Of a DNA stretch of 64,000 nt, positions 29,871 to 59,640 are shown piece by piece (the first letter of the stretch is position 1; the number at the start of each line of letters is the position of its first letter). This stretch comes from Bispira polyomma (lineage: Eukaryota), in contig OZ287757.1 of the NCBI GenBank assembly GCA_965649765.1, positions 7,936,001-8,000,000 of the forward strand. The letters are read 5' to 3'. The notes beneath the pieces were generated by a model. The model was not told where the DNA came from. It saw nothing but the letters and a program-made list of their open reading frames with translations, and searched no databases. Both the position numbers and the translations under genes were made by a program.

Positions 29871-32459
29871 GTGCTGACCAATGCTTGTCTAACGAAAATG
29901 CAAATTGAATAAGGATACTGTCTGCACCTTAGAATCCCTAAGAAGGAGAGATTAAGCACTATAAAAGTTCGAATAGATTAGATTATTGTTTCCTCTTCCT
30001 TGTTTTTAAAGTCGCCTCCCTTACGCTTTGATGGTGTGTCATTATCTTTATCATAAAACCAATTAAAAGTAGGTGATACTAAGCGACAAGCATGAAATAT
30101 TTGTTGTACCTTTGCCCTGTCCTTGTCTCACTGTGGTCTCATGGCTGTCCCATCTGCTTCTCAGGGGGTGTCGTCATACTGTCTCAACGATGGCATTTGA
30201 AGACTCCTTTCGTCAGTTTTTTTCTAGGCGACTAGAAGATAATATATTCTGTTCTTTACAACAGTTATTAATTAACTTATTCTTTAAACTAAATAATTTG
30301 TCTAAAATACACAATATATATTTGAACTGCCAGATGCCATTCTTTGTGTTAATATTTGTGTTAATATTGTAGTTATAGCATGAGCAGCGATTTTCTGTTA
30401 TTCTCTAAACCATTTATTATTACAAAAGTCCCAAACCTTGACCTGTTTGTGGTCAAGAGCTCAGACCCAATATGTTTGCCTATTAGCCATGATCTTTTCT
30501 GAATATCCCCCAGCATAAATAAACGTTACAGATTAAAATGAATACTTGATGCAGCAGCAAAATAGCCTCTAATTATAATGTACCTCATCAATGGCCGTGG
30601 TGGTAACACACTCGCCTCCAATGGCTGCACCTTTGCTCATTTGTTCCTTCTTGTGTGAGAGTTTTAAATGACGTTAAAAAACAAACAAACTAAATTGAAC
30701 CCGACCAAAAGCTGTTGAATTTGGACATCCCTGGACAGTCCCAGATCTGGACTATGGTCTGTGAGTACATGGACTCGCACCGTGGTGCTAATTAACAAAT
30801 CATGAACGGATATTCATAAACGGATATTCATGGGTCTACGCCCCTGGGATTTTGTGGATGTTCATGAATGTCTATGGTCAATGTTGATTTTATTCATCGG
30901 ACTTTCTATACATCACGTTCAAGTGTAAAGTATTTCGGAGGTAAAATTGATAGGGTTTTTTTCCTGTAGCTGCCAGTTATCTCTTGTAGTCAGTGTCTTA
31001 ATATCTAGGACAGGGTTTTTCGTTTTTCTCATTAAATATCTCAAGAGTATTAAGTGTATAATAAATACAGAGACAAAACGCCACCATGTCATAATAGAGT
31101 AAAGAATCGAAAATTTGCCAATGCATCTGTATAAAATTTGGCAAAAAATAACTGCAAGTTAGGTATGTGAGGAAAAACATTCACAAAAAATCTCATTTTC
31201 AGCAAATATTACCTACAATTCTACCAAAAAAGATAACATTTTCCAGGGTGGCGAATTTTTTAGAAATACAGTGGCATATTTAAGACTCCTTGCTCTATCA
31301 CTCTGTACCAGTGACTGTATTATTTTTGAAACTACTTTAGTTAATATTGTACTTATATTGTTATTATTGAAGTGTTTATTAAAGTGTTTATAGTGTTTTC
31401 TGTTCTCTTTATATGTCACTTTTCGGTTCAGTTTGTAACACACTTAAATTCAATGTGGTCAACACATGTTTACAAGAATTTTTTGTGTATTTGTATGTCC
31501 ACCCAGAAGACATAGAGACAAATCATATAAATCAATAAAAAATTAATTTTGTATTCTCTAAGAATGAAAAACTATGCATTAAAATACTAAAGTTTTGGTG
31601 TAAATTCGTCGGCAGACATAGTGGCAAATAAGATAAATTAATAAATGAAATAAATTTAATTCACCAAAAGAATGAAAAAAAAGTATGCATTCAAATGCTT
31701 ATGTTTGGGTGTAAATACCTAAGTATAACGGTTTAATGCAAATCAACTTCACTATGGCAGTAAGATTTTTTACCATTAAATTGTGTCATACATGTTTATG
31801 TTATAAGTTGCAAAGCTTTAACTTAGGTATACTGAATCCAGAAATGTAAGTGATATTGACACTAAGTGTTATATTGAAAGCTAACTATTCATAACTTTTT
31901 TTGAGAACACCAACTTGAAAGTATAATTACTTAGCTAAGTGAAAAAAAATTTTGTTCTAAATTTAAGTTTTAGTGTAAAGTAAACTTAAGCTTTGAGAAT
32001 ATACGGGTGCTGGAGCCATATTTATATCGTCATATATCTGAAAGATACTTGCATCTGCCTGCATGTTTAAATTTGTTGTTACAAGCTCTGTTAAATTGAT
32101 TGGTAACATGTCTAGGTTACTCTGACCATTAATAAAGGAAATCTACAACTCTATGGTATTATATTTTAATAATGTATTTTGCATCTTTTAAAGCACAACA
32201 GCAGAATCAATCAACCAATAAAGAAGTCCCAAAAAAACAAAGCCAGGTCATAAGGAATGAACAGGGTACAGGGAGGGAACTATGGGGTGGTTTCCGAAAT
32301 GTTCGAACTCAACTGGTACTCCTGTGTATATAAAATAAGATTGCTGTACAGATTTAGCCAGATAGAATAATATAATAAGGAATTTAAAATTCACCACTTT
32401 CTGATATTCGCCATCTGAAAAATGTAGTGTTTTTGGTAGAATTGTGGGTAATATTAAGG

Positions 32460-33176
32460 TGTAAATTCCTCTGAATTCTTAAAACAAGTTATATAAAATA
32501 TGAAACTTCACCTTTATGAAAATTTATCCAGATTGTTTTGACTACAGGCACCCATACTCTCTATATGTGTCCTTAACACAGTATCCAGACATAAAGGCAA
32601 TACATTGACATATTTCACTATGTCTGTTTTACATATACATATACCTAATTCAACCTTGATTGATCAAGGACATTCAAGGACATAACTCCCCTTTGCCATG
32701 GCCAATCAAGGATGTTGCTGGATTGGTCAGGGACATATGTATTATGGCAAGGATATATTTATCCTTTGCCATGGCCAATCAAGGATGGTACTGGGTCAAG
32801 GGTATACTGACCTTGCAATTTCTTATAAATCTCCTTACATTAACAGTCCAGAGAGAGTTTTTTTGGGTAGCCCAGGCAAGGTAGATTACGTCTTGCTTTA
32901 AAAGTGGCTTACTACGCATTTCTGTGAAATGGACTTTATTTATTGCTGTTGTAAAGTTCAGAGTTACTCCTGGATATTTGTTAAAGTAAGCAATGTTCAC
33001 CTTTTGTTTATATTTGAAATATTAAAGCATGATTTTAACACAATAAAATAATGGATGTCATATAATTGTTTTAATTGACAACTGCCTTTGGCTGGCCCTA
33101 TGTTCGACTAAGGTTACGATCCTGTGAGAACTTCTCATTAGATGGTCAATAGACAAGGGAATTCTCACCGTAATAA
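32460..33176 (+). promoter_or_regulatory. Putative 5' LTR with duplicated CCAAT module, TATA box and poly(A) signal
   Basis: 25-bp direct repeat cctttgccatggCCAATcaaggatg at 32690 and 32763; TATAAAT 32824; AATAAA 33042; ends just before the PBS; start uncertain. Confidence 0.6.
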
Positions 33177-33178
33177 TT

Positions 33179-33194
33179 TGGTGGAGATGCCGGG
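33179..33194 (+). promoter_or_regulatory. Primer-binding site complementary to the tRNA-Ala 3' end
   Basis: TGGTGGAGATGCCGGG is the reverse complement of ...CCCGGCAUCUCCACCA of eukaryotic tRNA-Ala. Confidence 0.85.
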
Positions 33195-33227
33195 TACTCT
33201 TTTAAGGCGGAAACAGTTAGGAGTTAG

Positions 33228-33479
33228 GTGTACCCTCCAACACAGTTTGCAGCCACTTCAACTAGTTATCCATATGACGAAAAAGATATAGAACAGGCGA
33301 TACTGTCGCAAGGTGACCATGCTTTAATACTTACGGATGATTTTAAAATCTCTACCACAAAGTGGTCTTATGAGTGCCTTCACTGTGGATTCGCTCATGT
33401 AAGAAGGAAGGAAATTTTGGCTCATCAGGGTACAGATCACCCGGGCTTGCCTCTGAGGATCAGTGTGATGATAGAATAG
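33228..33479 (+). CDS. Small leader ORF with a C2H2 zinc finger upstream of gag
   Basis: YECLHCGFAHVRRKEILAHQGTDH = Y-x-C-x2-C-x12-H-x4-H; start codon uncertain. Confidence 0.55.
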   Translation: MYPPTQFAATSTSYPYDEKDIEQAILSQGDHALILTDDFKISTTKWSYECLHCGFAHVRRKEILAHQGTDHPGLPLRISVMIE

Positions 33480-33555
33480 TATTTAAGGTAATCTCAAGCT
33501 GGAAAGACTGGATAAAAAGATCTTATTCAAGAAGTATTACCTATTGCGATCTAAG

Positions 33556-34569
33556 ATGGCCAATTTAGATGCTATTGCTCACAATTTAGATGCTTTGAGG
33601 GCACAGGTAGAGGGTATGGCTACTAACCAGGATGCCCAAGGTTGTGTCCAAGAAGAAAATCGAAATAGGTTGCAACACGCCATTCAACAAAGAGCTTCAC
33701 ATCCAGAAGTTGCCTCGATGCTGCTAGGTGGCTCAAACGATTTTTAAATTATGGTGAAAACTGTAATATGGATAACCAGAAAAGACTTAGGATTTTTCGT
33801 TTGATGGTCGAAGGAGTCGCTGAAGTCTGGTACTCTGGGTTGGCCGAAGCCGTAAGACAAAATTGGGATCAGCTGAGGGATGCCTTCACTGAAAAATACA
33901 TCAATGCTAACAATCTGACTTGGCTAAAAGAACAAGGACGTTTTGCTCGGGTGCAGGGCCCAAATGATATGGTTGAAACATATGTCACTGATGTGAGACA
34001 GATATGTAACCAGTTACAGAAGGGAGATGCAGAAGCCAGATCAATAATCTGCCAAAGATAAAGGCCTTTGTAATAGGCCAGCAACCTGAAACCCTGGAAG
34101 ACTTGTAAACAAAGGCACGTCTAGCAGAAAGCATAGAAAATCTGAAGCCTAAAGCCAACCCAGACAGGGTCAATCTGCTGCAGGAGACTTATGACCAGAC
34201 AGAATTTTGGTGACCTTGCTAAGTCTCTGAGTACATTACAAGATATTGTACAACAACAAAGTCGGGATATGCAATACGTTAAAAATAATCTGAAAAGTCA
34301 AGTTGTTTCAAGGAGCAATCCTTCGCAGACGCGTTACAGAGGAAACTTTCCACCCTTTTGCCAAAGATGCAAAATGCCAGGTCATCGGACAGACAACTGT
34401 GTTAGAAGGCCTTAAGCCGGGGATATAATTTGCTACAACTGCAACCGTAGGGGACATTTGAAAAGACAGTGCCCAGAGTTTAGCAAAAGATAGACAAGGA
34501 AGGCTGAACAGAAATCCTGCTTTAAACTACCAAGGGGCGTCTCTTGGGATGCGCCCAAGCCAAGCATAA
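33556..34569 (+). pseudogene. gag: Gypsy gag (capsid + two CCHC knuckles), frameshifted
   Basis: EGVAEVWYSGL...NWDQLRDAFTEKY...RVQGPNDMVETY; CQRCKMPGHRTDNC; CYNCNRRGHLKRQC. Confidence 0.9.
34521..34564 (+). other. -1 programmed ribosomal frameshift signal (T TTA AAC + downstream stem/pseudoknot)
   Basis: Heptamer 34521-34527; stem GGGCGT/GCGCCC; loop CTTGG complementary to CCAAG 34560-34564; protease DTG lies in the -1 frame. Confidence 0.65.
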
Positions 34570-37500
34570 AAAAGACAAATGGCCCCTGTGACACTATGGC
34601 TAAGAAGACTGGTGATAAATGTTTTATTATAAAAGAATCCAAGGGTTTCACTTTTGTCAAAATGTCTAGAGATAGACCACTACATGCTTTAATAGACACA
34701 GGATCGACAGTATCCTTGGCAGGTCCAAAATTATTTGCAGTGCTGCCTGAGTTAAAGAAGTAACTACAGGAGTATAATGAAACAGCAGCTATGGTTTGCT
34801 CTTCAACATTTCATTTTAACGGAAAATTAACATTTACATTCAAGTTAGCCGGACAACGCCACACCATCCTTTTGAAATACCTAGCGAGTATGCCATGCAC
34901 AGTGTTACTGGGTACAGAATTTTTGCAAGCTACTGGTGACTGTATTGATTTTGAGCAAGGAACAATAGCTGCATGTGAAAACTATAAGATTAGCTCACAG
35001 TATAGCTGCCTCCTTGAGCCAGGGCAGGAATCCGTGATTATGGGTGTATTACTCTCGATATCAATAACGGATATAGATGCCATTATAACACAAGATGTTT
35101 CTACAGGAGATAATATGACTATGATTTCTACAATTATTCAGATGTCCTGTGTTGGAAACACTGTACCTTTAACCATCAGGAACCAGACTAAAGATGCCAT
35201 GGTTATAGAACCAGGAGATATAGTAGCTACACTACATCTTCTTGAAGGAGAGGATGAACTATATGAAGCAAATGTGGATTACACAACCTAAGAAATATCA
35301 GGGGCACATGTGAATGCTGATGTTTCCAGAAAAAAATTTGAAATGCTATTCGATTGGGATGGGACAGCTGTAGACAATGAACAAAATAGATGCCTACTGT
35401 ACCTCTTATGGACGTATAACGACATATTTCAGATGCCTGGACAGGATTTAGGTCATACTAGCCTTCTGAAACATGAAATTAACCTTGAGCCAGGAAGTAA
35501 AGTGTTCACAACCCTACAGAAGTAATCTGAAGATTCGTGAAGAAATATCTACACAGGTGCAGGATATGCTAGAAAAAGGGTATCATTAGCCCGTCAAATA
35601 GCCGGTCTCATCCCCTGTCTCATCCCCTGTGGTCATGGTACGAAAGAGTGATGACTCTTTCAGATTTTGTGTCGATTATAGGAAGTTGAATTCTATGACT
35701 ATAGACGACAGCCATCCAATCGTTAGAGTGGACGACTCTCTGGAGTCTTTGGGAAGTGCCAAGGCTAAGTTTTTTCCACTATTGATTTACAATCAGGATT
35801 TTGGCAAGTGTTGCTTGACCCAAAGACAAAGCATTTGTGTGCTTTTACAACACATGATGGGCTATATGAGTTTGGATGGATGCCATTTGAACTAAAGAAT
35901 GCACCAGCTCCCTTTACCCTTTTAATGGCTTCCATCTTGAGAGGCTTGATATGGAAAGTATGTTTGGTTTATCTGGACGATGTAATATTATATTCCAAGC
36001 ATTTTCCAGAACATTTGGACAGGTTGAGTCTTGTCTTTGATAGGTTAAGGCAGGTTGACGTCCGGTTAAAGCCCAAGAAATGTAGCTTTGGGAAGGACAA
36101 AATTAGGTTCCTTGGACATTTGGTTAATGCAGGAGGAATTGAATCCCTTACTTGACATTTGTCAGTCAGTACAGGACTTTCCCAGGCCAACATGTATCAG
36201 GGATATTAGATCATTTCTAGGCCTGACAAACTATTATAGACACTATGTACAGGCCTATGCAGAGAAAAAAGTAGGGCACCTACAAATCTGACGAAGAAGG
36301 ATGTTGCCTTTGAATGGGATGAGTTGTGCGAGGATGCCTTTGTAACTTTAAAAAAGGCCCTCTCTAGTCTACCAATTTTGGCATACCCTAGATATCAAGA
36401 CCCTTACATTCTTACAGTGGACTCGTCCGGTGATGCCTGTGGAACGGTACTAAGTCAAATACAGGATGGTAAAAATAGGGTTGTATCTTATGGTGCCAAA
36501 AAGTATATTCTGCTGAAAAAAATTATGGAATTACAGAAAAGCAGGCTCTGGTATGTATACTTGGTGCGAAACACTATGAACCTTATTTAAAAGGAACTAC
36601 CTTCAAGATTGTAACTGATCATGCTGTTCTGAAGTGGTTACTTGATCAAAAGAAGACAAGTAGACGAATAGCCAGATGGATAGCATATTTGCAGCAATTT
36701 AACTATACTGTGGAGCATAGACCTGGTACGAAACTGGACAATGCTCATGGGCTGAGTAGACAATCCAACTACTAAGAAAGGATAATGATCTCCTAGAGCT
36801 TGATGATGTTATTTTACCACCCTTGAAAATAACATATACTGACAAGATCAATAAGAACATCAGTATGATCGCCAATGAGTCAGACACAGAAAAAGGAATG
36901 CCGGAAAAATGAATTAGTTAACAACATCAAAGAGGTGCCATAAATGGAAATTCAAGGGCTACCCATGATGAACTCTACATGCGATGCACTTGTACAACCC
37001 GATTCTCTGACCGCTAAGACTGAAAATCCTTGGGTCAATAGGCCTAAGGCTCCCTGAGATGTGAGACCAAACTTGTCTCTTGTAAATTTGCGTGAGATAC
37101 AAAAGGCCAATGCCGGTATAGAACTGAAAATAGCATACCTGGAAGATGGGGTGCTGCCACCAAATATGCGCGAAGCTAGGAGACTGGCAGTTCTAGACCA
37201 AAACTTCGAAATAATTGATGGAGTACTCTATCACTTGTGGTACCCTAATGGACTGAGTGATAAGGGTAGAATAATCATACAGTTGGTTGTCCCTAATACA
37301 CTGGTGCACAATGTCTTCTCATCAGGACATGGAGATGTCCCGGCTGGTCATTTTGGCATGAAGAAAACCTATCACACCATAAAATTAAAATATTTTTGGA
37401 GGGGCATGATGCTCGATGTCAGGAACGGGGTAAGGTCTTGTCACTATTGCAACTCAGCTAAAAAGCCCACTAAACCCTACAGATCACCCCTGATGCCACA

Positions 37501-38749
37501 GCCAGTTCGAAGGGTAGGCAAGGTCTGGCAATTTGATATTGTCGGCCCTTTAGCCCAGTGCCATTCAGGTTCAAAATACATGCTTGTCTTCATAGAAGTG
37601 ATGACTAAATGGGCTGAAGTTTTCCCACTAGTCGAGACTAAGGCTCATATATTAGCTTGGTATTTTGTAGAGGAGAAAGTTTATCGCTATGGTGCTCCAT
37701 CATATTTATTGAGTGACATGGGAAGCAATGTAGTTGCAAAAGTTATGAATGAGGCAGTCTTCACTCAAAAATTAGTGACTTCTCCTTATATGCCACAGAC
37801 TAATTCAACAGTAGAAAGGTTTAATCATTCATTAATCAAACAGTTGACTGGATTTGTTGATGCTGCCTCCAAGGACTGGGACCGATTTATTCAGCCTGTT
37901 TGTTTTGCATACAACACTTCTACTTGTGTTGACTCGACTCACTACCAGCCATTCTATCCCTTATTTGGCCGGACTCCAAGGACTTCCTTCAGCACCACAC
38001 TTCCAAATCCTCCTGATGTTGCCAAGGCAGAAAATAAAAACTTTGTTCGGGATTTGATTCAAGGACTCCAATTTGCACATGAAGTGGGACATAAAAATAT
38101 GGAACACCACAAGGCCAAAATGAAAGAACAATACAATAAAAAGGTGCATACTGAGGAATACAACGTTGGTCAAAGAGTTTGGGTATACTTTCCAGTTGTT
38201 AAAGTAGGTGATGCCCGTAAACTAACCAAAAAGTATTTTTGGACCATTCATGATTGTTCAGCAGGTTAGGCAGTAGAACTTTTAAGTGGTGAGAGGCCAT
38301 GACCTTAAGTCTTTAATAAATATGGTGCATGTAGATAGACTCAAACCATATATAAATAGGCAAGTCGTTCCTCCAGTTGAAGAAGAGTTATATAACTTAT
38401 TAACTGATGACAATGAAATAGACGACCTTGAGGTAGAGGATAGGCATTATCCTGAACAGGCCCAGGAAGACCCAACGAATGATTTTGAGATGGCCATCGA
38501 CATAGACCCAATACCAGCACCACAGATGTTCAAGATGCCCGGGACATCTTGGAGGAAAGAGACAGCATAGAGTAAACTGAACTAGTGATTAAAACTAGTT
38601 ACAACGACATAAACATAACACAAAATGACACAGTGAAAAAAACAATTACACAAGACAACCAAACGCGTCTGACTGCTTTGCGACGCTCTTGCCGTAATGC
38701 CAAACAGAGAATGCATCTTGCTGATATTCTTAGCGATAGTGAGGATGAT

Positions 38750-38890
38750 GAAGAATATGTAGCAAACAGAGTTATTAAGGGACGGTATGCAAAGGATGGA
38801 AAAGTAGAAATATTTAATTGATTAGGCAGGGTACCCAAAGGAAGCAAGAAGCTATGAACCTTACGAAAACTTAAATGCCTTAGCCAGAAA
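38750..38890 (+). pseudogene. Chromodomain at the integrase C-terminus
   Basis: EEYVANRVIKGRYAKDGKVE / YLID*AGYPKEARSYEPYENL (1-nt frameshift, stop at the Trp position). Confidence 0.8.
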
Positions 38891-39076
38891 GTAAATTGCC
38901 GAGCACAATGTCCCTATAACTGGCAAACCCCCTGCAAGTATACAAATGTAAGGATGATACCTTCAGGCTTCTGTCAAAGTATTAATACCAGTGTGACCAA
39001 ACAAACTAAGTCATGTTATTTTTTTACTTCATCCTGGTGTAAATCTCTAGCTATCCTGTGAAAGATACAGGATGAG

Positions 39077-41611
39077 ATGATGGTTGGATTTACTTCACTC
39101 ATAGGTGGCCTGGCCAGCTGACTGTTAATAAATCTGCAGCCCATATTGTGTGCTGATGCACAAGGAACCCCTGACATGATTGTCAGGGAAAATATGGGTG
39201 TAGTTTTTCAAAGAGTTGCAACTCTGGATAATTCGGTGTCTTACTGGTCACATACCATTGTGATAAAGAATCCTGACACCAGAGACTTAAAGGTACAGAA
39301 ATCGTTCTACCAACGTAGAGTAAAATTGGAACATACAAACCTAATGTTATTACTGTGTGATGCCTACAAGGATATTTGCCAGTCATACGATGATATCAGG
39401 AAATCCTTGAGCAAAGAAGTTGATGAAAAATCTGTAATATCACAAGAATTGATACCAGTTGGTGAAAGTAAGAATTCGGACAATGATTTGTCTTCAAATA
39501 GAAGGGCCAGAAGGGCCCCACTGGAATTTATAGGACGAATATCAAGGAATCTTTTTGCTACTGCAACCCTTGATGATGTGCAGATCTTAAGGGAACACAT
39601 TTTTGCACTCGAAAATGACCCTGAGAAATTTCAGGGATTCCTAAAGTTTACAAAAAGCCCTTCATCCTTACAGTTTGAAGTAAATAAGAACATGAAAATA
39701 GTTGCTGACGGTGTCAGAAGGAACAAGTTAATGATAAATAACACTTTACACAAGATAGACATATTGCACAATTCTGTCGCTGAGGTTGTAACTGATGTTT
39801 CAACAGCAGTTTCAGCCGCTTACTCAAGTTATTGCAATTATGCATGGAATAAATGCCAGGGAAATGAATTCAATGTTCTTAGTTATTGATAGTTACTCTA
39901 TTTTACTGAAGGAAAATCTACCTATTCACATGATCACACCTCAGAGGGTATCCCAAATATGACGAAGTGTTGAGAAACACCTAAAGGCGACTCACCCATC
40001 CTTCCATGTGCTACACAAAGTTCCTGCAGTCTATTACAACATGCCTGGGGTGGTGACATATACAAGGACAGGGAATTCAAGATACCAATCACAAGCAGCA
40101 ACCTGTTGTATGAGGTGTACTCAATCAGAAGTATTCAGATTACCATCAGCAACTCATCGGATATGTCCTTCACTAAATTACGTGAATTTCCACCTTATCT
40201 GGGTGTCACCAAGGATACTAAGTTTTTTTGTGGAATTGGACCAAGTAGCCTACGAATCATGCCCAGGTGAAAATTTCAAATAATGTTCAAACGTTTTAAG
40301 AGTTTTCCAGAACACGGAGCCAACATGTTCCAGTACTTTATTCATGAACGAATTGGATAATATTCATGCACGTTGTGACATTTCGCTGTATCCAAAACCT
40401 AATCGGAATAAGACTTCATTGACCTTCAAGATGACAGGGTGTTGATAAGTACACTGGATCTCAACTGTCCCAAATTGTGCGCTGTGCAAGTCTTGTAAAT
40501 GCCCCATGTCATCTAAAAGCTTCCGTGTAACCACAAGTATTCACATGTGTAATCAAATGGAAGCAACTGAGACTAGAATTGTTACCAATTACCTGGCAAC
40601 AGTGTCATATCTTTAAACGTTTCAACCTGATATTTTATTTTCTGATAGCACGTCTCTAAATAAACTCTTAGTTATTTAACTTTACTTTACCTCAAATTAA
40701 TATTTCCTACAGTAGGTGGACTAAGGATACTGAACAGTTTAGCACTGTTGACAGTAGTATAGACTTGAGACAGACTCTAAATTCCTTGAAACAGAATAAG
40801 ACCATTTATTTAAGACCATTTGATGCTTGGCTAAATGACCAGTTACCAACTCCTCTTGACTATACAGATGTTGGTTGGGTTATCAGTTACACCATCCCTG
40901 TATTTGTGATTTTGCAAATGATTTTGCTAGTTAAGTTTTACAGAAGGCAAAGGCATTTGGAAAATATTTTCCAAGGTATTCTCCAGGGAAGATAATCAAA
41001 CAACATTGCTTAATAAGGCGGAAGGTTTCAATTCCAACAGGGATATTCAAGTTTTGACAATTGACCGGCTGACTTGCTGACTTTATTTTGGGTATTGTCA
41101 GGAATAATGGTAATATACCTAATTGTTCAAATCATAATTAAAATTCTGGAAATGGTTAACTTAGGAAGGAATACACTGGAACAGTCTCTTGAAAATCAAA
41201 AGACTTGGTTACAAATGATAATTAGTAACGGTGTTAGAAGAGTTTCAGCCACTGTCTGTGAAATAAATATATGCTTATGAACGACATATTATATGCACAG
41301 TCCTCTGAAACAACTTATCCTAAGCTATCTCTTTGCACTATAAGGCCTTATTTGAAGATGAGTATTTTGAATTCTTAAACATAACTTCTATTGTGAACAA
41401 TAACATAAAGATAATTCTACCACAAGAATTTAGGATTAGTTACCTCGATGTTCTGAAGTATTATTACATTCGTCAGAGTCCTCCTGCCCTTATTCAAATC
41501 ATTCTAGTCGGCAGTGAAGAACCAAAGCCAATTGTGCTTAAGAAGTTGTACAAGGTTTTTAAGTTTCATAAAGTTATGAATGCCTGGAAGAGACAGGTAC
41601 CTTCTCTATAG
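39077..41611 (+). pseudogene. env: env-like class I fusion protein (baculovirus F / errantivirus Env type), disrupted
   Basis: Signal-peptide-like MMVGFTSLIGGLAS*LLINLQPILC; furin site RARR 39503-39514 then fusion peptide APLEFIGRISRNLFATATLDD; heptad-like region; TM VISYTIPVFVILQMILLVKFY; second TM near 41074. Confidence 0.85.
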
Positions 41612-41875
41612 CTGATACTGTTGAGTTCGGATCTCCAGGTCCATCGTCTTTACTAACAGAAAAACTGTAAGTTCTTAAGAATTCTGATCTGATTGTAGAA
41701 TTGAGGAGCTTAGAAGTGTGCTATTTATTATTAAAAGCAGAATAATTTGGACAGATATTTTCATTTCAAAATACTAGTGGTTTAAATGGTGAAAGCATAC
41801 TAAATGTCTATAACTTTGTGTGTGATAAATTAAATGCATTACAATAAATAATTGAGAGAGACCAAGTACACATAT

Positions 41876-42507
41876 TTAAATCCAAATAATATTGTACAAA
41901 CAAACAAAACCAACAAACAAACCAAAAAAACTAATACTTGATGGGCCGAATAAATCATTGTAATATATTTTGCCTTCATTAAGATTTTCATAATGGACCA
42001 GGTGTAGTTTTCCGGCTTTGTCATTAGAACTCAAGGTTATTTTTGAGGAGCCGTGGTGATAGGCATAAACAAACAATTCCTTCCAGTCTATAATAATGGT
42101 GACTTATAATTTCTTAAAATAAGGCCAACCTAATGGACTGATAACTGCAACCATTAAAAGTAAATATGGTTTGAATAAGTGGTGCCATAGATACCATGAT
42201 ATTATAGGCACATAATAAACATAATAATACCTTACCTTTTAAATATAATTGTGTAACTAAACCAATGACATTATCCAAATTACAAAAGGGTATGCAAAAT
42301 ATAAAAGTGACAGAGAAGCCTGAGAATGGCTAGTAGCTGCCAAAATGAATCTAACACTTCGGCAAAAGTTACCAAATGCCTTTATATCCTTAGCAGTGAC
42401 CTTATTCTCATTTCTGAGGGCTGAAAACCTTCGATGGGTCACCTTGTTACTAATACAGAGAAATGCTACCAGAACCAACCTTCCCAAAAATCCTTAAAAC
42501 AACGCAT
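41876..42507 (-). pseudogene. Decayed antisense hydrophobic ORF in the Gypsy accessory region
   Basis: ORFs 42257-42487 and 41876-42076 share a frame; ~200 codons with only 3 internal stops; several hydrophobic segments. Confidence 0.35.
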
Positions 42508-42839
42508 AAAATATAAATATTTGTGAAAGCTTATACTATGATTAATGCTTGGTGCCAGTGAATTGATTAGCACTGATGGACGTGACCAAGGGCGGTCAAG
42601 GTTTACAGAATATAATCCTTGACCGTTGTAATAATCTCCAATCATGACGTAGGCAGGAGAAATATTGTTTACAAACTACTGATTTCATTTCACCTTTGGT
42701 ATACTCTGGTAAAGTGTTAATGGCACAGGCCTGGAAAATCCTGGACTAAGTCTTGTTCTGTTCCTAGAAAGAGAGACATCTACTGTTTGGTTGCTGTTCT
42801 GCAAAACAAGGAATACAATTCATTACAAAACAAAAAAAA

Positions 42840-43209
42840 ATGCCATTCTTCGGACAAATATATTACGATAGGCTGGTAATGAATCCAGGTCTAGAGACAG
42901 TTGATGAGCCTGCGGATTCGGAGATAGAAAGCGCTTTGCAAAGCCAGCAAGTGACATTGTTTCCAACCTCCTTTGGATTCTTTTTGCTGACATTTAGTCA
43001 GGAGGGTTTCCTCCTTTACAAAAGTAAACATTACTCCGGTGCAGCCATTTGACCACATATTGAATATGAGGGTGTTATCCGTCATAGAACAGGTCTGCTT
43101 GATGAGGAAACATTTCAACTTCAAAATCCCTTCACTTAAACTGAAATTCAAGTAATGTGGGCTGAAGGATGCAATATAACAATAACTTTTTGCCTAAAAG
43201 GCAAGTAAC
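42840..43209 (+). pseudogene. Decayed accessory ORF, unknown function
   Basis: MPFFGQIYYDRL...; frame continues through two stops to ...CNITITFCLKGK. Confidence 0.35.
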
Positions 43210-43958
43210 CTAAAACTAATAGCTTTACCAGTTACCTTCATCAGTGCAAGGTCTGGGTGGAATCAGCGATTGTTTAGGAAATTTAATGCTTACCTGGCCT
43301 TCAATAATGATGTTATAAGTAAACAGAATGTTTGTAAATGGGTTTTGGTTGATAAGTTCAATGTCAACCCCTGAAAGTCACTTTCCTAGAAAGTTAACCT
43401 TGCCGGACAAGGTTGTGGGGAGCGCGCCAATAACATCATAGTCTTCATGCAGTTACCATGACTGATGACAGCTGAAGGTTTTCCTGGGTCACCTTCAATA
43501 GCTCCACCAAGGATAGTTTTGAAAACTGATGACTTGACTAGCCTCCAAATTTCATACTTTGAGATGTAGTGTTGATCAACAATGGCTCCGGCTAGTCTAG
43601 TTTCGATACCATTGCTGATAGCTCCTGATTGGATTTACATGCTAAGGACGTCAGCAAACTGCCACTGTTCCAAGCCAAGGGGGGATATAAATACAGATCT
43701 GGATTGCCAGCAACTTGGCAGTCCAACAAACGTCTTGCAGTAGAGTAAATGCTATGAGACTATATTTTGTGGCTGATGGGATTCTGCAGAATACTATTTT
43801 GCATTTTAATAAATCCAAGACCTGTTATATTTAGTTCACTGCACATTTCTGGATATTTAATCTCTGGATATTTCATTTGAATTGTGGTTCACACTTCTTT
43901 ACTGCCTTATTTACTATAAACAAAGGATATCATTTAGTGATGATGATTCACTTTAATC

Positions 43959-44339
43959 ATGGAACCAAGAATTAGACTCAGGATTATATCTTTTACATGT
44001 GAACACACTTTATTTATTCGGCTGGACCCTGGAGTTTGCCATGAGTACCTTGATGACCATCCCCATGTATACGAGTACCATCTTCTCTATGGTCGACGGT
44101 TCGGTGCCAATATGCAAATAGATGTTTTCCTGACATGTGATGCTAACATACCTAATTTTATGGAATAACTTGCCGCTCTTCGAAGCATGAATAATATACT
44201 ATACTGGGACGAGATCCAGAGTCTCCCAGATTTATCAGTTTATTGTACAGACAGTGACAAACCTAGTTCTTCACTCAATTTAACATCAAAGCCTCCATCT
44301 ACAACCACCACAGAATCACCGATCAGCAACACCTACTGA
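43959..44339 (+). pseudogene. Decayed accessory ORF, unknown function
   Basis: MEPRIRLRIISF...NFME*LAALRSMNNILYWDEIQ...; ~126 codons with one stop. Confidence 0.45.
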
Positions 44340-44359
44340 CTGTTCCTTCATGCTCCAGC

Positions 44360-44707
44360 TTGCTACAGCATTATGCTCCTTCCAAGGTACAGTTACCTCG
44401 ACTAGCTCAGCAGACCAATCACGCAGTTTCTAACAGCTGTGACAGCTGCAAAGCTCTAGAGGGAATCAAAGAAGCCCATATGGTCTTACCTGCGGGAGCT
44501 GTGGTACTTAATATTGATAGAGTATTGAGGCCAAGCCTTCAGATAAGTTGTATGGTAAATTATGTGTCTAAAGAACTTGATGGTGCCGTAGTAGTTGAAT
44601 ATTTGCTATCCCCACAATGTTGTAAGGGAAATATGTCATTTACGTTAACAGTTTACACTCCACAGAACATATATAATGTACTAAAGGTGTATTTATTAAT
44701 GTTTTGA
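44360..44707 (+). CDS. Accessory ORF, unknown function (115 aa)
   Basis: Open frame in AT-rich DNA with globular-looking composition; no family recognised. Confidence 0.35.
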   Translation: MLQHYAPSKVQLPRLAQQTNHAVSNSCDSCKALEGIKEAHMVLPAGAVVLNIDRVLRPSLQISCMVNYVSKELDGAVVVEYLLSPQCCKGNMSFTLTVYTPQNIYNVLKVYLLMF

Positions 44708-44728
44708 TGCTTATTGATGCTTTGATAA

Positions 44729-45639
44729 ATGGCTGAACTAACATTTCGCTCCTGGAGTACAGGTGACACAGTTTTCTATAAATTTCACAGAGAAATCAGT
44801 CAGGTTATTATTGATTCACTATGGTTCAGTCTGCTCTAGCGCGCAAATTGCAACAAGGCCAGTTGCTCTGTTTAGTAAATGACAAATGTTATTTAAACCT
44901 AAAGTATCCAGAAGCAAAGGCCAAGGAAAGGCAAGATTATTACAATAACTGCTTTGCCAAAGCAGCATTTGTGTCCCTTATTCATTGCCTTTGTGACCAG
45001 GAAAGTGATAAAGAGATATATTTTCATGTAAAGAAGCCAGATGTCATTAAGGCTGCTAAATATCTGCAGCTTCATTCCATACCAGAGGGTGTCCTGCTCA
45101 AATCTATTGATAATTTGAACTGTAAGAGTTATTTTCTGGCTCACCAGCTTTTCCAACATCAAGATTCCCTGTTGTCATTGTTAGATTCCTATAATCATCA
45201 GGAAATAGGTGTACCAAGCAGAACGGTTACCTATTTGCTACAGAACAACAAAGTAGCTGACATGATCAGGTCTGCAAGTTATTATCACAGTAGGATGCAC
45301 TCTAAAAGAAAGAAAATCTTAAAAGCACAGTGTGTTCATTGTAAAAAAAAGCAAATTCACCCATTTGACATTGCTAATTGTCAGCCTTATGAGATTGGGT
45401 AGACTTAATGTTCCAGACCTTACTCCCACAAAAAGTGTTACTTAGACTTTTTGTCCAAGTCAGCCAAGCGAAGTCCTTCAGCTGGGCTGCATTGTCCAGC
45501 TTGTCCCTCAGTTTTCAGCGGTGGATCCCTCGATAAAGGAGCATCTGCTTTTAACATGTTTATGATGGGACCATCCGTAAATACTATTTACATGAACAGG
45601 GAATTTCGCATCAGTAACACAGGCCTTACAAAACATTAG
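44729..45639 (+). pseudogene. Accessory ORF (~300 codons) with a C-terminal RING-like zinc finger
   Basis: 44821-45402 and 45451-45639 are in frame across two stops: CVHC...T*CSRPYSHKKC...LHCPAC. Confidence 0.6.
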
Positions 45640-45759
45640 TCACTTTTATTGCTTTCCTAAGTAAGATGTTGCCTTAATATAAGTTGTGTTTGAGGTGCCT
45701 TCAAATTAATTAGTGTTAATTAGTGCTACTTTCTTGGTGCTTTTGTACAAATGTACTTA

Positions 45760-45978
45760 TCAGCTGGTATCTACGTTTAGGGTGTGGAAAGTCTCAGCTA
45801 TATACAGGCTTAGTCCTGTCCTGAACAGCTCTGACAATTTTTTTTTTAACGTGTTATATAGGCTGGTTTATATGAGGGAAGTCTCAGCTATATACAGGCT
45901 TAGTCCTGTGCTAAACAGTTCCGACAGTTTCATGTTTTCGTTTCTAACATGTTATACCGGCTGCTGTATATGAAAGTA
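45760..45978. repeat. ~90-bp tandem duplication in the Gypsy 3' region
   Basis: aagtctcagctatatacaggcttagtcctgt at 45789 and 45879. Confidence 0.9.
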
Positions 45979-46588
45979 GTCATTTCTCTTGTGTTATAAT
46001 GATATAGTGCAAGAATAGAAGAAACATAAAAATGTTTCTTTACAAACATATGAAGATGTATCCAATTTGTATATTGCTTTGTTTACAAACGTTGCATGCT
46101 CATTATATCCAGGAAGTTCAGCTAACTACTTCTATGTACAACACGTATGTATTTGTATATGTATATACATAATGTATATGTATATGTATATATATATAAT
46201 GTATTAAGATAATCATAAACTGGTAGAAATGTGTATCTATTTTGTTATGGTGGTATATTACACACAGAGTAAAGAAGGCCACACTCTAACTATTGCTAAG
46301 TGGCCACTGCCTGGTAAACAGCTATATGTTAATGGCTGTTTACAGCTTGCTGATTTAGAGGTCTGAAAAGTAATTCTGAAGTAACCCAGTTTTCCCTGAA
46401 TATATTTTATATTTTATAGACACTTATATTAGTGCTTTGTATTATATATCAAGGAATAGAACCACATGTATACTATTAAAATGTATAGTATTATATCTGT
46501 TATGTGTATATAAGTATCGGATGAGTGTAAACAGTACTCTCTCACTACAACTACATGTATGTTATTGTTTCTGGGGTCAATGTTTCAC

Positions 46589-47305
46589 AGAGCAGGGATG
46601 TAAGCTCTTAATATAGACAATACAAGGAGGTTAAACAAAGACACCACAACTTCTATATTTTAACTTCAACCAGAGACATAAGTTAGGCGCTCATTCTTTC
46701 TTTGATTGATGATTCAAGGATTTATTACTTATCCAAACCAATTGAAATCAATTATATATGTAATTTTAATTGCTTGATGATCTTATGTATCACCAAGATT
46801 TGTTTATACATTTATAGATATACACTATATTTAGCCGTAAATGCCATTGTGTATCTACTACTTTCGGATCGCCTAATTAGCTACTTAGGTTGTCGGTTCA
46901 GTTATACAAGTTTGTTGTGCTAATGTAGACAACATTATTAAAGATCCCTGTTCTGTTGTTAACAGTAGTAAATTTGTTTACATATGTACTTCATAGTCTG
47001 TACTATACTGCTGTGACAATTATATTCTGTATATTATACTAAGGATTAGTAGTTCAATGATCCCAATAATGTATTATCCAGTTTGCAACATCAATGATTG
47101 TATTTACATATTAATTATCTGATTTAAAATTTTAATCACTTCACAACTCTATTGCAGTTACCAGGCGAGAGCTTTTAACACCAACTGCTTATGCATATTG
47201 TTAACTCTGTTTTCTCCTTGCTAATCTAGGCCTTTCCAGTATTACTAATTGGTGCTACTAGTTCTATTTATGCTACTACTACAGTTTGTGGTAGTTTATT
47301 TACTT
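46589..47305 (+). promoter_or_regulatory. Candidate polypurine tract (46589-46598) and 3' LTR starting TG at 46599
   Basis: agagcaggga|TGTAAG; only patchy similarity to the 5' LTR candidate. Confidence 0.4.
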
Positions 47306-51999: not shown

Positions 52000-53158
52000 A
52001 TACTTTGGTTTAGCGTTCGCTAAGCCGCGTCCACCGCCGCAGAGAGTTTTTTTCCATTAAGACTTTTAGCGGAAAACTAGACCAGCTAGCTTCACCAAAT
52101 TTGCAGGATATCTTCATTGGGAAGTAAGCTTTTTTGCGACTAAATTAGCCTTATTCTAAATAACAAGATGGCCACCATCGGCATTTCTCTGAAAATTATC
52201 CACCTTTTTCTACTGGCTATTTCATAACTAGAGGATTGAATCTTTTCATAGGTGATATGTATAACAGATATATATGTCCTCTACAAGCATGTAGACATTT
52301 GACCTTAAAACTCTTCATTCAAGGTCATCCACAGAGTGCCAAAGTACCCCACATAGCGAACTTGAAAATCTCCCTTATTATCGGTCCCAGAGGTTTGACA
52401 TGTGAAGCCTACTTTTAGGAAATCATGGGCTAGGAATCTTCTGATGTGGTCAGATTTGACCTTGAACCCCTCATTCAAGGTCAAACAAGGTATCCAAACC
52501 TAAAAGTGCTTATAACTCGCTTATTATTGGTCCTAGAGGTAAGGCATGTGAAGCCTACCTGTAGGAAATTATGGGCTGGGAATCTTCTGATGTGCTCAGG
52601 TTTGACCTTGGGCCCCTTATTCAAGGTCAAACATGTTATCTAAACTCAAAACTGCTTATACCTCACTGAATATTGGCCCTAGAGGTTACCATTGTGAAAC
52701 CAACTTATAGGTAATTATGGGGTCTTATGTGGTCAAACTTGACTTTAGGCCCATCCATCAAAGTCAGACAAGGGTAGTTAATCGTAAAAGCGCTTATAAC
52801 TCACTTATTATTAGTCCTAAAGTTTTGAGATGTAAAACCAACCTGTAGGATATCATGGGCTGGGAGTCTTCTGATGTGGTCAGGTTTGACCTCGTGTCCC
52901 TTCTTCAAGGTCAAATGACAATAGCCAAACTTAAAATTGCTTATAACTCGCTTATTATTGGTCCTACAGGTTTCCAATGTGAAACCAACTTATAGGTAAT
53001 CATGGGCTGAGAATCTTCTGATGTGGTCAGATTTGACCTTGCACTCCTCCTTCAAGGTCAGACGAGGATAGCCATAGCTTAGGTGCTTCCTACCTAGGGT
53101 GCTCTGTCTTTCTGGTGGATATAAATATGCATCGGTTCTCCAATGCGCTTGGTCTAGT
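52000..53158 (+). mobile_element. Non-autonomous Helitron/Helentron-type element carrying a ~146-bp satellite array
   Basis: Unit recurs at 52421, 52567, 52713, 52851, 52998; 3' hairpin GCATCGG-ttct-CCAATGC (53129-53146) followed by CTAG-TT. Confidence 0.7.
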
Positions 53159-55977: not shown

Positions 55978-58900
55978 TAATTGTAATTGTAATTAGACTT
56001 TTATTGTGCTTAATCTCCCCTTAACAAAGGGGACTCTAAGGCGCACCAGCACAAAAGACAGTTATCCAATTGCCAAAATCAAGGGACACAAAAAAGGGTC
56101 AGCAACGTAGAGCGTGCCGGGGGATGATTGAAACTAAGGTGTATATGCTTTAGTGTACAAGTGGGTTTTAAGCTTCTTTCTAAAACAGGCTAGTGAGGGG
56201 GAAGCACGAATCACATCAGGGAGACCATTCCAAACAATGGGAGCATCAAAAGCAAAGCTGTGACCAAACTGTTTAACCGACTTTTGAGTAGATGGGTGGA
56301 ACTTCGGAACAACAAGGAAATTACTACCACTCTGACTACGTCGGGTATTGTAGGAACTACTGTAAATGGAAAGATATGGGGCAAAATACTTTGGAAACCC
56401 AGTGTGGAGAAAACAAGAAACAAGTGTAGCTGTCTTAAACACTGAACGCTGTTCAACAGGGAGCCAATGCAATTTCTTAAGAACAGGAGTTATACTAGTG
56501 TATCGACTGGTGTTTGACACAATTCTAGCTGCACTATTTTGAATGCATTGTAATTTGCGTAAATTAAACTTTGAGAGACTCCTGAAAAGTGAATTGCAGT
56601 AATCCAGTCTACTACTGACAAAAGCATTGGCTACAAGTATAGAAGCATCATAAGTGAGAAACTGTCTGACACGTCTGAAGTCACGGAGTTGCATAAAACA
56701 GCTTTTGCAGACACTCTGAACGTGTTTAGAGAAAGAAAAGTCAGAGTCAAACCATACACCCAGGTTCTTGACAGAATCAGCTGGACTGAAAGGGCTACCC
56801 AAGATGTCAACTGGGAACAATGCTTTCAACTTATCCCTCTGTTGTTTTGAGCCAAAGATTATGAACTCAGTCTTAAGGATTAAGTTTAAGTTTACCAGTT
56901 GACATCCACTCTTTCACATCGTCAAGGAACCTGTTCAACTGTTCAAAGGCAGTAGATGTGTTTTTATGGGATAGGTGCACATAAATTTGGGTATTATCTG
57001 CATAAAAATGAAACTTTATACCTGTGTATTTGCCAATAACCAATCTAAGAGGGGAAGTGTATAATGAGAACAACAGAGGGCCCAAAACAGAACCTAGAGG
57101 AACACCAAACAAGAGTTTACAAACATCGGACAGAGTAGAGCCAATTTTTATCGACTGATGACGATCAGTTAAGTAGGAAGTGAACCATTTAAGAACAGAG
57201 CCCCTAACTCCAAACCAAGTCTGAAGACAACTGAGAAGTTTGGAATGATCAATGGTGTCAAAGGCAGCAGAGAAGTCAAGGAATACCAGGGCAGTAGGTT
57301 CCCCTCTTGACAAAGATAGGTGAACTTCATTTTTTATAGACAGGAGAGCTGTCTCAGTCGAATGACCAGTTTTATACGCAGACTGGTATGGGTTGTCTAA
57401 GTCGTGGTCAAAGATGTGATCTAACAGTTGCCTAGCAACCACGCGTTCAACCAGTTTTGATATGAAACTAAGACCAGATACAGGGCGATAATTCTTCAGG
57501 TCATCAACTGGAAGAGAAGCCTTCTTAATAAGAGGAGTAACCACAGCTGTTTTAAAACCATCAGGTACATGTCCCTCCGTAAGTGAGCAGTTTACAAGCT
57601 TTGTAATGGATGGTAGTAATATATCACTACATTCTTTAATAAGAGATGTTGGCCATGGATCCAACATGCAGGATTTTGTAGGCGAGTTACTTATTATTTT
57701 ACTAACATCATCTTCGGAGACTCTGGTAAAGGCAGTAATTTCTGTGGTATCAGAAAGAGGATGAACATCAATTTTAGTTCCAGAGACAACAAAAGTATCT
57801 CTAATTCTCTTAATTTTGTCCAAAAAAAAGGAAGCAAACTTATCAGCTAGTGATTTATCCGAATCATGGGACGGGAGTGCCACATTGGTATCCATATTAA
57901 GGGTCTTGCGCAGTTCGTGCCACAGCTTCCTGGAGTTGTGACTGTTGTCAGAGATAAGCTTGCTGTAATACACCGACTTATCCTCGTTAACAAGTACATT
58001 GCACAGAGCAATCTGGCGACGTAGTCGACTTCTATTTAATGGATTCTTGGCCCTTCGCCAAGTTCTTTCATATTGGCGCCTGAGAGATTTTGCCCGTCGG
58101 TAAGAATCAGAGAGCCAATGCACAGAATCTTTCTTTGACATTCTCGATACAAGTGGTGCATGCTTATCTAGTACATCACCCAAGTCATGTATGTATTGTT
58201 CATAAAGTTTGGCTACAGAATTGGCAGGTGACTTAATAAAGGAAGTACTCTCAAGATCAGTACGGAGGTCAGACATGTTAATATGGTGGTACCTCCTATA
58301 ATGCACTGTATTAGGTATGTGAGCCACCTGTGGGGGAGAGGCAATTGAGCATTTGACTAATGCATGATCCGATATGAAATAACAGACTTTGACATCCACA
58401 ATGGCATCGTGATCACAAGGAGATAAAATAAGGTCCAGAATGTGACCATGCAGATGGGTAGGTTGTCTAACTGACTGTTTTAAATCGCATGAATCAAGAA
58501 AGGTCATAAATTTATGACCGTCACCAACTGGTGCATCAACATGGATGTTAAAGTCACTACAGATATGATATGAACTGTTAATGGAAGACAAGAAACCAAC
58601 AAAAGACATAAATTCTTCTAAAAAATTACAGGTACATGATCCTGGGGGGCGATAGACGCAGGCAAGCAACAGTGAGCGGCCATGAAGCCCAATTGACACC
58701 ACCATATTTTCAAAGGACTGATAGACAGGAGAATCTATTTTATGTGGTTTGTAGGAGGCTCTGATGAAGAAACCAACACCGCCACCAATACGTGAGGGAC
58801 GAGGCGTTTGAGGAAACACAAAATCTGGAGGAGTAACAGACCGTAGGAAGCTATCCGTATCAGATAGACGGACATGGGTCTCTGTAACACAAAGGAAGTC

Positions 58901-59640
58901 GAGGTCGTGCGATGTCACAATATCTGCAAGGAGTGGACCCTTGTTCCTCATGGATCTAGCATTTAACACCCCGAGCCTGACAGGACCAGGGTTAAGGGAC
59001 ACATCTCCGGCGAGTAAAAGTAACAAGACAAGACCTCTTCCATTAATGGTGGTAGGAAATTTACGACAAGAACAAGTGTATGAAAATTTTTTGCAACTTT
59101 AGCCAATGAGGTTGCTGATGTATGAGCAATGCTGTGATGCAACAACTCATACCTATGAGCCATAGCCACAGCAAACAGTGCTTAAAAAAGGACAGCCCGA
59201 AGCAGAAACATGCCTAGTGAGGTTGTAGAGAAAGAAGAAGCCCTTAAACTGAACTCAACAGTGGGGAGCCTCAGAAAGCTTGTCCCTACAACTCACCGCA
59301 CAATTCTTCGTCCTGTGGGCGACTCACGGGCACCCTAGCACCCCACACTATAGCCTGACCTTAAGCTAAGTACAACCACACCAACATGTAGCAACAAAAG
59401 ATGAGACAATACTTATATTGGTCATTTTACAATATAGAACAACAAAATCATAAATAGTAATAAAAAAATGTACAGATATAGGCAAAAATTTACAATATAG
59501 AACAGCAAAATGAGACAAAAATCAATGTAAAAGGGGTATAAATATCAAAAATAGTAATAAATAAATGTACAGATATCGGCAAAAACGACGACCTTATTAC
59601 AAAATATTATGGTACAGTAGAGGACGGCCCACTCCCGCCA
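55978..59640 (-). mobile_element. L2/CR1-group LINE, near full ORF2, minus strand
   Basis: (AATTAC)n tail ~55978-55994; 3'-UTR hairpin tcccctt..aagggga; APE+RT ORF; 5' end uncertain. Confidence 0.9.
56134..59026 (-). pseudogene. LINE ORF2: 2A-like peptide, APE endonuclease, RT; one frameshift near 56875 and YADD changed to YADN
   Basis: LLLLAGDVSLNPGP; LNARS, VTETH, VYRPP, DFN, SDH; NYRPVSGL, DFSAAFDTIDH, GVPLGSVLGP, YADN; SRLDYCNSL, LHWLPV. Confidence 0.93.

Follow-up and report, generated by a model that had tools for sequence, protein, structure and literature searches.

Organization of the element

The window analyzed here is the whole 64,000-nt stretch at C10:7936001-8000000 (contig C10) of a 1.04-Gb animal genome. 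It contains a decayed, retrovirus-like copy of a Ty3/gypsy element that carries both an env gene and a chromodomain, with the following features given in window coordinates.

32452..33175, plus strand: 5′ LTR of 724 nt with the ends TATTA...TAATA, delimited by genome copies that share these ends
33179..33195, plus strand: primer-binding site (PBS) matching the 3′ end of tRNA-Ala
33228..33479, plus strand: leader ORF with one C2H2 finger (Pfam E 1.6e-6)
33487..34560, plus strand: gag (capsid and zinc knuckles) with stops and frameshifts, from Pfam and sister genes
34521..34590, plus strand: UUUAAAC slippery site and predicted stem, a predicted −1 frameshift signal
34520..38951, plus strand: pol, broken, with protease (assigned by inspection from its DTG motif), RT, RNase H, integrase, and a C-terminal chromodomain (Pfam)
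39074..41611, plus strand: F-type env, broken, with signal peptide, RRARR furin-like site, transmembrane segment (TM), second hydrophobic segment, and C-terminal domain
41612..43958, no strand given: element-internal DNA common to other copies, with no assignable frame
43959..44168, plus strand: putative accessory gene X, an alpha/beta domain of ~70 to 110 aa from an unnamed family
44267..44707, plus strand: putative accessory gene Y, with a low-complexity N-terminal part and a CxxC ... C(xx)C domain from ~44402
44815..45402, plus strand: a third, probable accessory gene containing the BTB-like motif DVIKAAKYLQL, supported in its N-terminal half only
45403..46604, plus strand: 3′ internal region including a Cys-rich "RING-like" tail, for which coding is unsupported

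The gag, pol, and env genes of the window copy each contain several stops and frameshifts, in contrast to the open genes of sister copies. The pol domains follow the protease, RT, RNase H, integrase order of Ty3/gypsy elements, wherein the last three are matched by Pfam and the protease is recognized from its DTG motif. The LTRs, PBS, and target-site duplications expected of such elements are present for the family; the window copy lacks a 3′ LTR, and a related copy on contig C1 has one. An F-type env located after pol and equipped with a signal peptide, a furin site, and a TM also places the element among errantiviruses, as that term is used in PMC13524379. Pfam matches to C2H2, Retrotrans_gag, RT, RNase H, integrase, and Baculo_F occur in sequence, which bears out the order of C2H2 ORF, gag, pol, and F-type env proposed in a first-pass annotation of this DNA.

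The leader, gag, pol, and env genes

The C2H2 leader ORF is common to the window's own subfamily (W) and to sister subfamilies A, B, and C, being found in 11 of the 13 sister A, B, and C 5′ ends examined, with ~32% identity between the window ORF and its sisters. Its dN/dS among A copies is 0 to 0.30 on few changes, and within W the corresponding test is not significant (p 0.13). Downstream, gag is identified by Retrotrans_gag and zf-CCHC, the zinc knuckle being recovered from X-read frames and from sister copies. This gene exhibits a synonymous excess (p 0.007) and a dN/dS of 0.26 in a comparison with one W copy.

In sister copies, pol overlaps gag and is read in a different frame. The predicted −1 frameshift signal at this overlap, which consists of TTTAAAC at 34521 and a predicted downstream stem, is present in 8/8 A copies and 3/3 C copies; the single B copy yielded no such signal. 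By analogy to known retroelements, Gag-Pol would be made by −1 frameshifting at this signal, which the first-pass annotation also named. The annotated pol architecture, from protease through integrase to chromodomain, likewise holds. The window itself gives a weak chromodomain match C-terminal to the integrase (E 0.02), and the domain was assigned through sister copies, where the match is clear (E 2e-9 and 1e-8).

The env gene matches Baculo_F above cut-off in the window (E 6e-6) and in one sister; its signal peptide, furin site, and TM were identified by inspection. Homology to sister env (tblastn) runs past the first TM and through the second hydrophobic segment to ~41271. The remaining tail, to 41611, was delimited by inspection of translations and has a dN/dS of 0.31 (p 0.13).

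Boundaries of the window copy

The first-pass annotation had the element run from a PBS to a candidate polypurine tract (PPT). Its PBS at 33179 stands. The start does not, since the 5′ LTR lies just outside it at 32452 to 33175. Seven of the 10 best non-self LTR matches begin exactly at 32452, and five of these end within 10 nt of the LTR end. Target-site duplications of 4 bp, which fix the LTR boundaries, flank three of the seven LTR loci inspected, and these three are solo copies. The nine best non-self LTR copies are 82 to 91% identical to the window 5′ LTR, and subfamily W is therefore old. The PBS matches the tRNA-Ala 3′ end CCGGCATCTCCA(+CCA), a sequence listed in the supplement of PMC13524379, and this match is consistent with priming by tRNA-Ala.

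The proposed PPT probably does not hold either. The homology between the window and the C1 copy ends at 46604, ~25 nt before the C1 3′ LTR, and the window copy lacks the purine run that other copies have next to the LTR. Because homology stops short of the LTR, the true PPT and the 3′ LTR have probably been deleted from the window copy.

The region downstream of env belongs to the element

A decisive question is whether the ~5 kb that follow env are part of the element. The second W copy, located at C1:102.288-102.302 Mb, is ~82% identical to the window, internally deleted, and interrupted by a LINE. It retains, in order, a 5′ LTR fragment, the leader, the env tail, and the equivalent of 41623 to 46604, which is followed directly by a 3′ LTR whose sequence is that of the window 5′ LTR. 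This copy thus does not show an LTR placed right after env, which would mark the downstream region as foreign.

We considered the alternative that the element ends after env and that the region beyond it is an unrelated neighboring insertion or host DNA. The lack of a 3′ LTR in the window copy would fit this arrangement, as would three loci on contigs C9, C7, and C4 where homologs of the region occur without gag-pol. These gag-pol-poor loci, however, are patchworks of several subfamilies from the same clade. Moreover, the C1 copy has the region directly beside its 3′ LTR, and X and Y lie between env and the 3′ LTR in copies whose LTRs are 93 to 99.6% identical. We consider a neighboring insertion largely refuted and extremely improbable. 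The comparison of copies thus supports the reading in which the post-env region belongs to the element and carries real, conserved genes, and for this reason it was fair to describe the lineage originally as Ty3/gypsy, complex, and env-bearing.

X and Y recur in sister subfamilies

A search of the genome with the integrase revealed younger relatives. In a tree of 19 integrase stretches, all from this genome, subfamilies A, W, B, and C group together (100/99) as sister to D/E, with W on a long branch. The grouped subfamilies are those that share the leader, X, and Y. LTR-bounded sister copies have LTRs that are 93 to 100% identical and span 10.7 to 14.2 kb (8.5 kb in one internally deleted copy), and the distance from env to the 3′ LTR in such copies is 1.7 to 4.9 kb.

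The order X, then Y, recurs in each of three sister subfamilies. A blastn comparison found no match between the window block and A or B copies, and the X and Y proteins are 20 to 41% identical between subfamilies. Profiles built without the window nonetheless recognize both genes there, with X matched at 43980 to 44174 (iE 6.7e-8) and Y at 44417 to 44698 (iE 8.5e-5, or 9e-13 when outside homologs are added). In all three subfamilies in which the genes are open (A, B, and C), X and Y share one frame and are separated by one or two stops.

Among 14 LTR-bounded A, B, C, and W copies, Y lies inside the LTRs of 10 and X of nine. Both genes are absent from four, one of which has 100% identical LTRs. 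Thus, the X-Y pair seems dispensable and would not be needed in cis.

The remaining content of the region differs among subfamilies. Subfamily A adds a Cys-rich ORF (Z) after env, subfamily B and one C copy have an ORF that is BTB-like and ends in a Cys-rich tail, and subfamily D has three unrelated acidic or Gln-rich post-env ORFs. These differing sets indicate that the cassette is modular. In subfamilies D and E, which are more distant, the ORFs located after env are matched by neither the X nor the Y profile and have no Pfam hit.

Selection on the accessory reading frames

To evaluate which frames are coding, dN/dS values were supplemented by a stricter test in which each variant codon is counted once and the transition bias is taken from the LTR; p values are nominal, with nine block frames tested. 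The copies compared are not independent, as they include tandem duplicates, and they carry post-insertion decay. Within W, X has a dN/dS of 0.16 to 0.35 (5/5 copies) and a synonymous excess (p 0.002), and Y has a dN/dS of 0.31 to 0.39 (4/4 copies) and a synonymous excess (p 0.012). In the LTR, which served as a control, none of six frames gave such an excess (p 0.45 to 0.93). Across diverged B, C, and W comparisons, X and Y range from 0.14 to 0.56, near the values for gag (0.26) and for B env (0.38 to 0.40).

The first-pass annotation listed four or more additional frames, from both strands, the last of them a RING-like ORF. Of these, X and Y hold up, and 44815 to 45402 is partly supported, in its N-terminal half only. 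The third ORF (from 44824) has a dN/dS of 0.33 to 0.54 in 5/5 W copies; its N-terminal half gives p 0.07, where its stop-rich antisense shadow gives p 0.004, and its C-terminal half gives p 0.7. We regard it as a probable, weakly supported gene that is BTB-like at most. No significant constraint was detected for the plus-strand frame at 42768 (dN/dS 0.83 to 1.33 in four W copies; p 0.71), for minus-strand frames at 42.9 to 43.8 kb, or for the RING-like tail (dN/dS 1.2 to 3.3 in 3/3 W copies; p 0.84). The minus-strand frame 43197 to 43775 (p 0.06) is the best candidate for a gene at 42.3 to 43.9 kb, where constraint tests and frame scans placed none.

A different reading of these ORFs is that they are captured cargo, hitch-hiking without function, and that their apparent conservation reflects alignment bias or shared ancestry. 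The dN/dS in young A copies is 0.5 to 2.0 for X, Y, and Z, on few changes, compared with 0.24 to 0.81 for integrase, and such near-neutral values weigh against strong recent constraint. The frequent loss of X and Y and the absence of an assignable frame at 42.3 to 43.9 kb point in the same direction. However, X and Y are conserved at the protein level in four subfamilies with a difference of ~40% between their integrases, the synonymous excess is frame-specific against a clean LTR control, and the first CxxC of Y is kept in 15 clusters of homologs outside this genome. Functionless cargo is therefore improbable in our judgment. Instead, X and Y have very probably been kept by selection as element-borne accessory genes, an assessment that applies to their retention and excludes the functions proposed below.

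Candidate identities of the accessory genes

Y has no Pfam or PDB sequence match. A structural model built from eight sequences (pLDDT 76) aligned best with eIF1 (Z 6.8, rmsd 2.6, 78/83 residues), and SUI1-type domains occupy five of the top 12 structural rows (Z 5.2 to 6.8), among which unrelated chains reach Z 6.0. Foldseek placed eIF2beta/eIF5 at the top with non-significant E values (5e-3 and 0.025). These fold matches lie below the tools' own thresholds (Z under 8; Foldseek E above 0.001) at 6 to 13% identity, and the resemblance of Y to the eIF1/SUI1 fold is a lead only. The predicted fold is similarly like that of DENR, eIF2D, and the eIF2beta/eIF5 N-domain, although the likeness may reflect just a common alpha/beta arrangement. 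For X, likewise without a Pfam or PDB sequence match, the model (pLDDT 65) has no clear fold (best Z 5.7). A profile comparison did not support X and Y as paralogs (E 0.17).

The subfamily B ORF is called BTB in Atlas with a score of 0.90, but it has 114/256 shared features where true members usually have 170 or more, and it has no Pfam BTB match. The third ORF of the window scores 0.77 in Atlas and has a short motif alone in common with the B ORF, to whose profile it is weakly matched (E 0.016; score 22.9 versus 17.9 for the best of 30 shuffles). No Pfam family was found for Z, the third ORF, or the frames scanned at 41.7 to 43.8 kb, and word-index searches of near-length proteins with the B BTB-like ORF, the X alignment, and the third ORF returned nothing.

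Other assignments were rejected. For the RING finger proposed at 45.3 to 45.6 kb (Cys-rich tail at 45409 to 45630), there is no Pfam RING in three frames and no constraint; as the copy is decayed, an older finger is possible. Suspected likenesses between Y and papillomavirus E7, and between the minus-strand frame and histidine phosphatases, were unsupported by any search, and tblastn gave no phage match for the minus-strand frame.

Relationship to known elements

The errantiviruses gypsy, ZAM, and Idefix of Drosophila have gag, a frameshifted pol, and an F-type env, as is the case here. They are not known to carry a chromodomain, a leader ORF with a finger, or a block of genes after env. Their PBS is of the Ser/Lys type according to PMC13524379, unlike the tRNA-Ala PBS described here. 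The same source (Chary and Hayashi, eLife 2026) describes F-env Ty3/gypsy elements across metazoans, with a chromodomain clade in Cnidaria, Mollusca, and Annelida. Its "ancient" F-type chromodomain errantiviruses resemble the present element in architecture, namely in LTR, gag, pol with a C-terminal chromodomain, F-env with a furin site, and tRNA-Ala among the listed PBS types. The 10 annelid and mollusc Ala-PBS rows of PMC13524379 measure ~9.2 to 11.3 kb from LTR to LTR, versus the 10.7 to 14.2 kb of full-length sister copies. Its main text does not mention accessory, zinc-finger, extra, or post-env ORFs. Since F-env together with a chromodomain outside insects has thus been published, only the accessory cassette is new.

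Extra ORFs are known generally among invertebrate LTR elements (PMC6431247, PMC5408684, PMC8220671, PMC4402516), and ORFs can be captured downstream of env, as noted in PMC6431247. Examples described in these sources include bdelloid LTR elements with ORF3 (PMC5408684) and planarian Burro, which combines env with ubiquitin- and apoptosis-related domains (PMC6431247). The extras of these elements, as described there, are recognizable enzymes or host domains, whereas the present cassette consists of two unnamed small genes kept in order after env across subfamilies. The literature searched contains no description of the X-Y cassette, although one may exist in sources beyond it, such as Repbase/GyDB, subscription papers, or the supplements of preprints.

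Complex vertebrate retroviruses carry small accessory genes between env and the 3′ LTR. These viruses, together with foamy-like ERVs of fish that have accessory ORFs (PMC6431247), resemble the present element in having several small, dispensable genes at this location. They differ in belonging to Retroviridae with another env class, and no homology to the cassette has been demonstrated.

Possible functions of the accessory genes

The core of the element is known. What appears to be new is an accessory cassette that is real and comprises two genes, probably three, together with the leader finger gene; this is fewer genes than first counted. The C2H2 leader before gag, the X-Y pair, and the probable BTB-like gene after env are likely to represent retrovirus-style accessory factors. 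By analogy to known retroelement biology, the chromodomain may guide integration, the F protein may permit entry into neighboring (germ) cells as for Drosophila gypsy and ZAM, and the post-env genes would be expressed from spliced or internally initiated RNAs. The lineage may once have been infectious.

More speculatively, X and Y could act as one functional unit, because they share a frame in 3/3 open subfamilies and are fused in one predicted protein from outside this genome (P0022). In our working model, Y would be a zinc-binding, SUI1/eIF1-like domain that tunes start-codon selection or reinitiation, with either the multi-ORF RNA of the element or host mRNA as its target. Such an action on translation is speculative and somewhat doubtful. 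The BTB-like gene could serve as a Cullin-3 adaptor or as a decoy against host restriction. A role in ubiquitin-dependent restriction is a tentative possibility for the subfamily B gene and a weaker one for that of the window.

An alternative role for X and Y is that they serve the RNA or particle of the element itself, in export, packaging, or transcription (cf. Rev/Tat and Cer1 CERV), rather than host translation or degradation. Both are small, Cys-containing alpha/beta domains, and SUI1-like and ferredoxin-like folds commonly bind RNA. In addition, a genome search found no host paralog of Y, as all matches whose surroundings were inspected lie in element copies or fragments. The absence of both genes from a copy with identical LTRs disfavors an essential, cis-linked replication role, although help in trans would fit. 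We find the own-RNA role quite possible and comparably likely to the translation and ubiquitin working model. X and Y, and the third gene if real, likely act on the host cell; the "host-modulating" label given originally to the accessory genes is best read as an inference.

Invertebrate env-bearing gypsy elements are treated as simple gag-pol-env elements. If conserved, partly dispensable extra genes are indeed present, then some gypsy elements would have evolved functions like those of complex retroviruses, and X, Y, the BTB-like gene, and the C2H2 leader would be named candidates for retroelement-host conflict outside insects and vertebrates. The broadest form of this proposal is a wide invertebrate complex-metavirus lineage that converged on the lentivirus/foamy-virus plan, with an F-type env, a zinc-finger leader, an eIF1/DENR-like X-Y mimic of initiation, and a BTB ubiquitin-ligase adaptor that counters host defense. 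We consider this full combination unlikely.

Homologs of Y outside this genome

A search of 1.84 billion representatives with the Y profile yielded 16 matches at E ≤ 0.001, of which 15 are alignable and one is a repetitive artifact. All 15 clusters of outside homologs are unnamed. Several comprise three to nine members encoded on contigs of megabase size, a pattern that a repeat in other assemblies would be expected to give. Elements of this type are a likely origin for this unnamed protein family, which comprises at least 15 clusters.

Coding regions and LTRs of the element and its relatives

Within the clade of the element, env encodes 855 to 889 amino acids, and its first transmembrane segment is followed by a second hydrophobic segment and a domain of ~150 amino acids (40990 to 41611 in the window; the env ends of copies L060, L063, and L069). 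This C-terminal domain has no Pfam match. The same holds for the segment between protease and RT (34990 to 35290), which by eye, judged from its motif, resembles a degenerate dUTPase-like domain. The LTRs of subfamily W have the termini TATTA...TAATA (32452 to 33175 in the window), whereas those of subfamilies A and C have TGTTA...TAACA.

Only in subfamily A (L066, 4979 to 5380, and other A copies) was ORF Z found, a Cys/His-rich reading frame located 3′ of accessory gene Y, for which Pfam likewise yielded no match. The distant subfamilies D and E have a different set of post-env ORFs, which encode acidic, Gln/Pro-rich products of 140 to 196 amino acids, are open in several copies, and were assigned to no family.

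Post-env ORFs of D/E copies
L087, 2809–4602
L088, 5595–7401
L091, 2712–4539
L093, 2218–3980

One-strand patchwork loci

Four loci of the B. polyomma genome (L040–L055, L138–L141) are each composed of mixed fragments from two to four subfamilies of the element's clade.

Patchwork loci
C9, 7.74–7.82 Mb
C7, 39.145–39.185 Mb
C4, 25.48–25.52 Mb
C11, 31.925–31.965 Mb

Matches are on the same strand throughout (C9, 34/34; C7, 8/8; C4, 12/12; C11, 30/30), in counts that include some tandem duplicates. Such an arrangement resembles uni-strand, flamenco-like piRNA clusters.

Other repeats in the window

The window also contains long inverted or tandem repeat arrays. In addition, inspection revealed remnants of two non-LTR (LINE-like) retrotransposons, in which endonuclease/RT-like frames can be seen.

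16661–22841, +, LINE-like remnant
56134–59098, −, LINE-like remnant
9282–10035, 11517–11874, and 52345–53092, MITE-like and 146-nt satellite-like arrays
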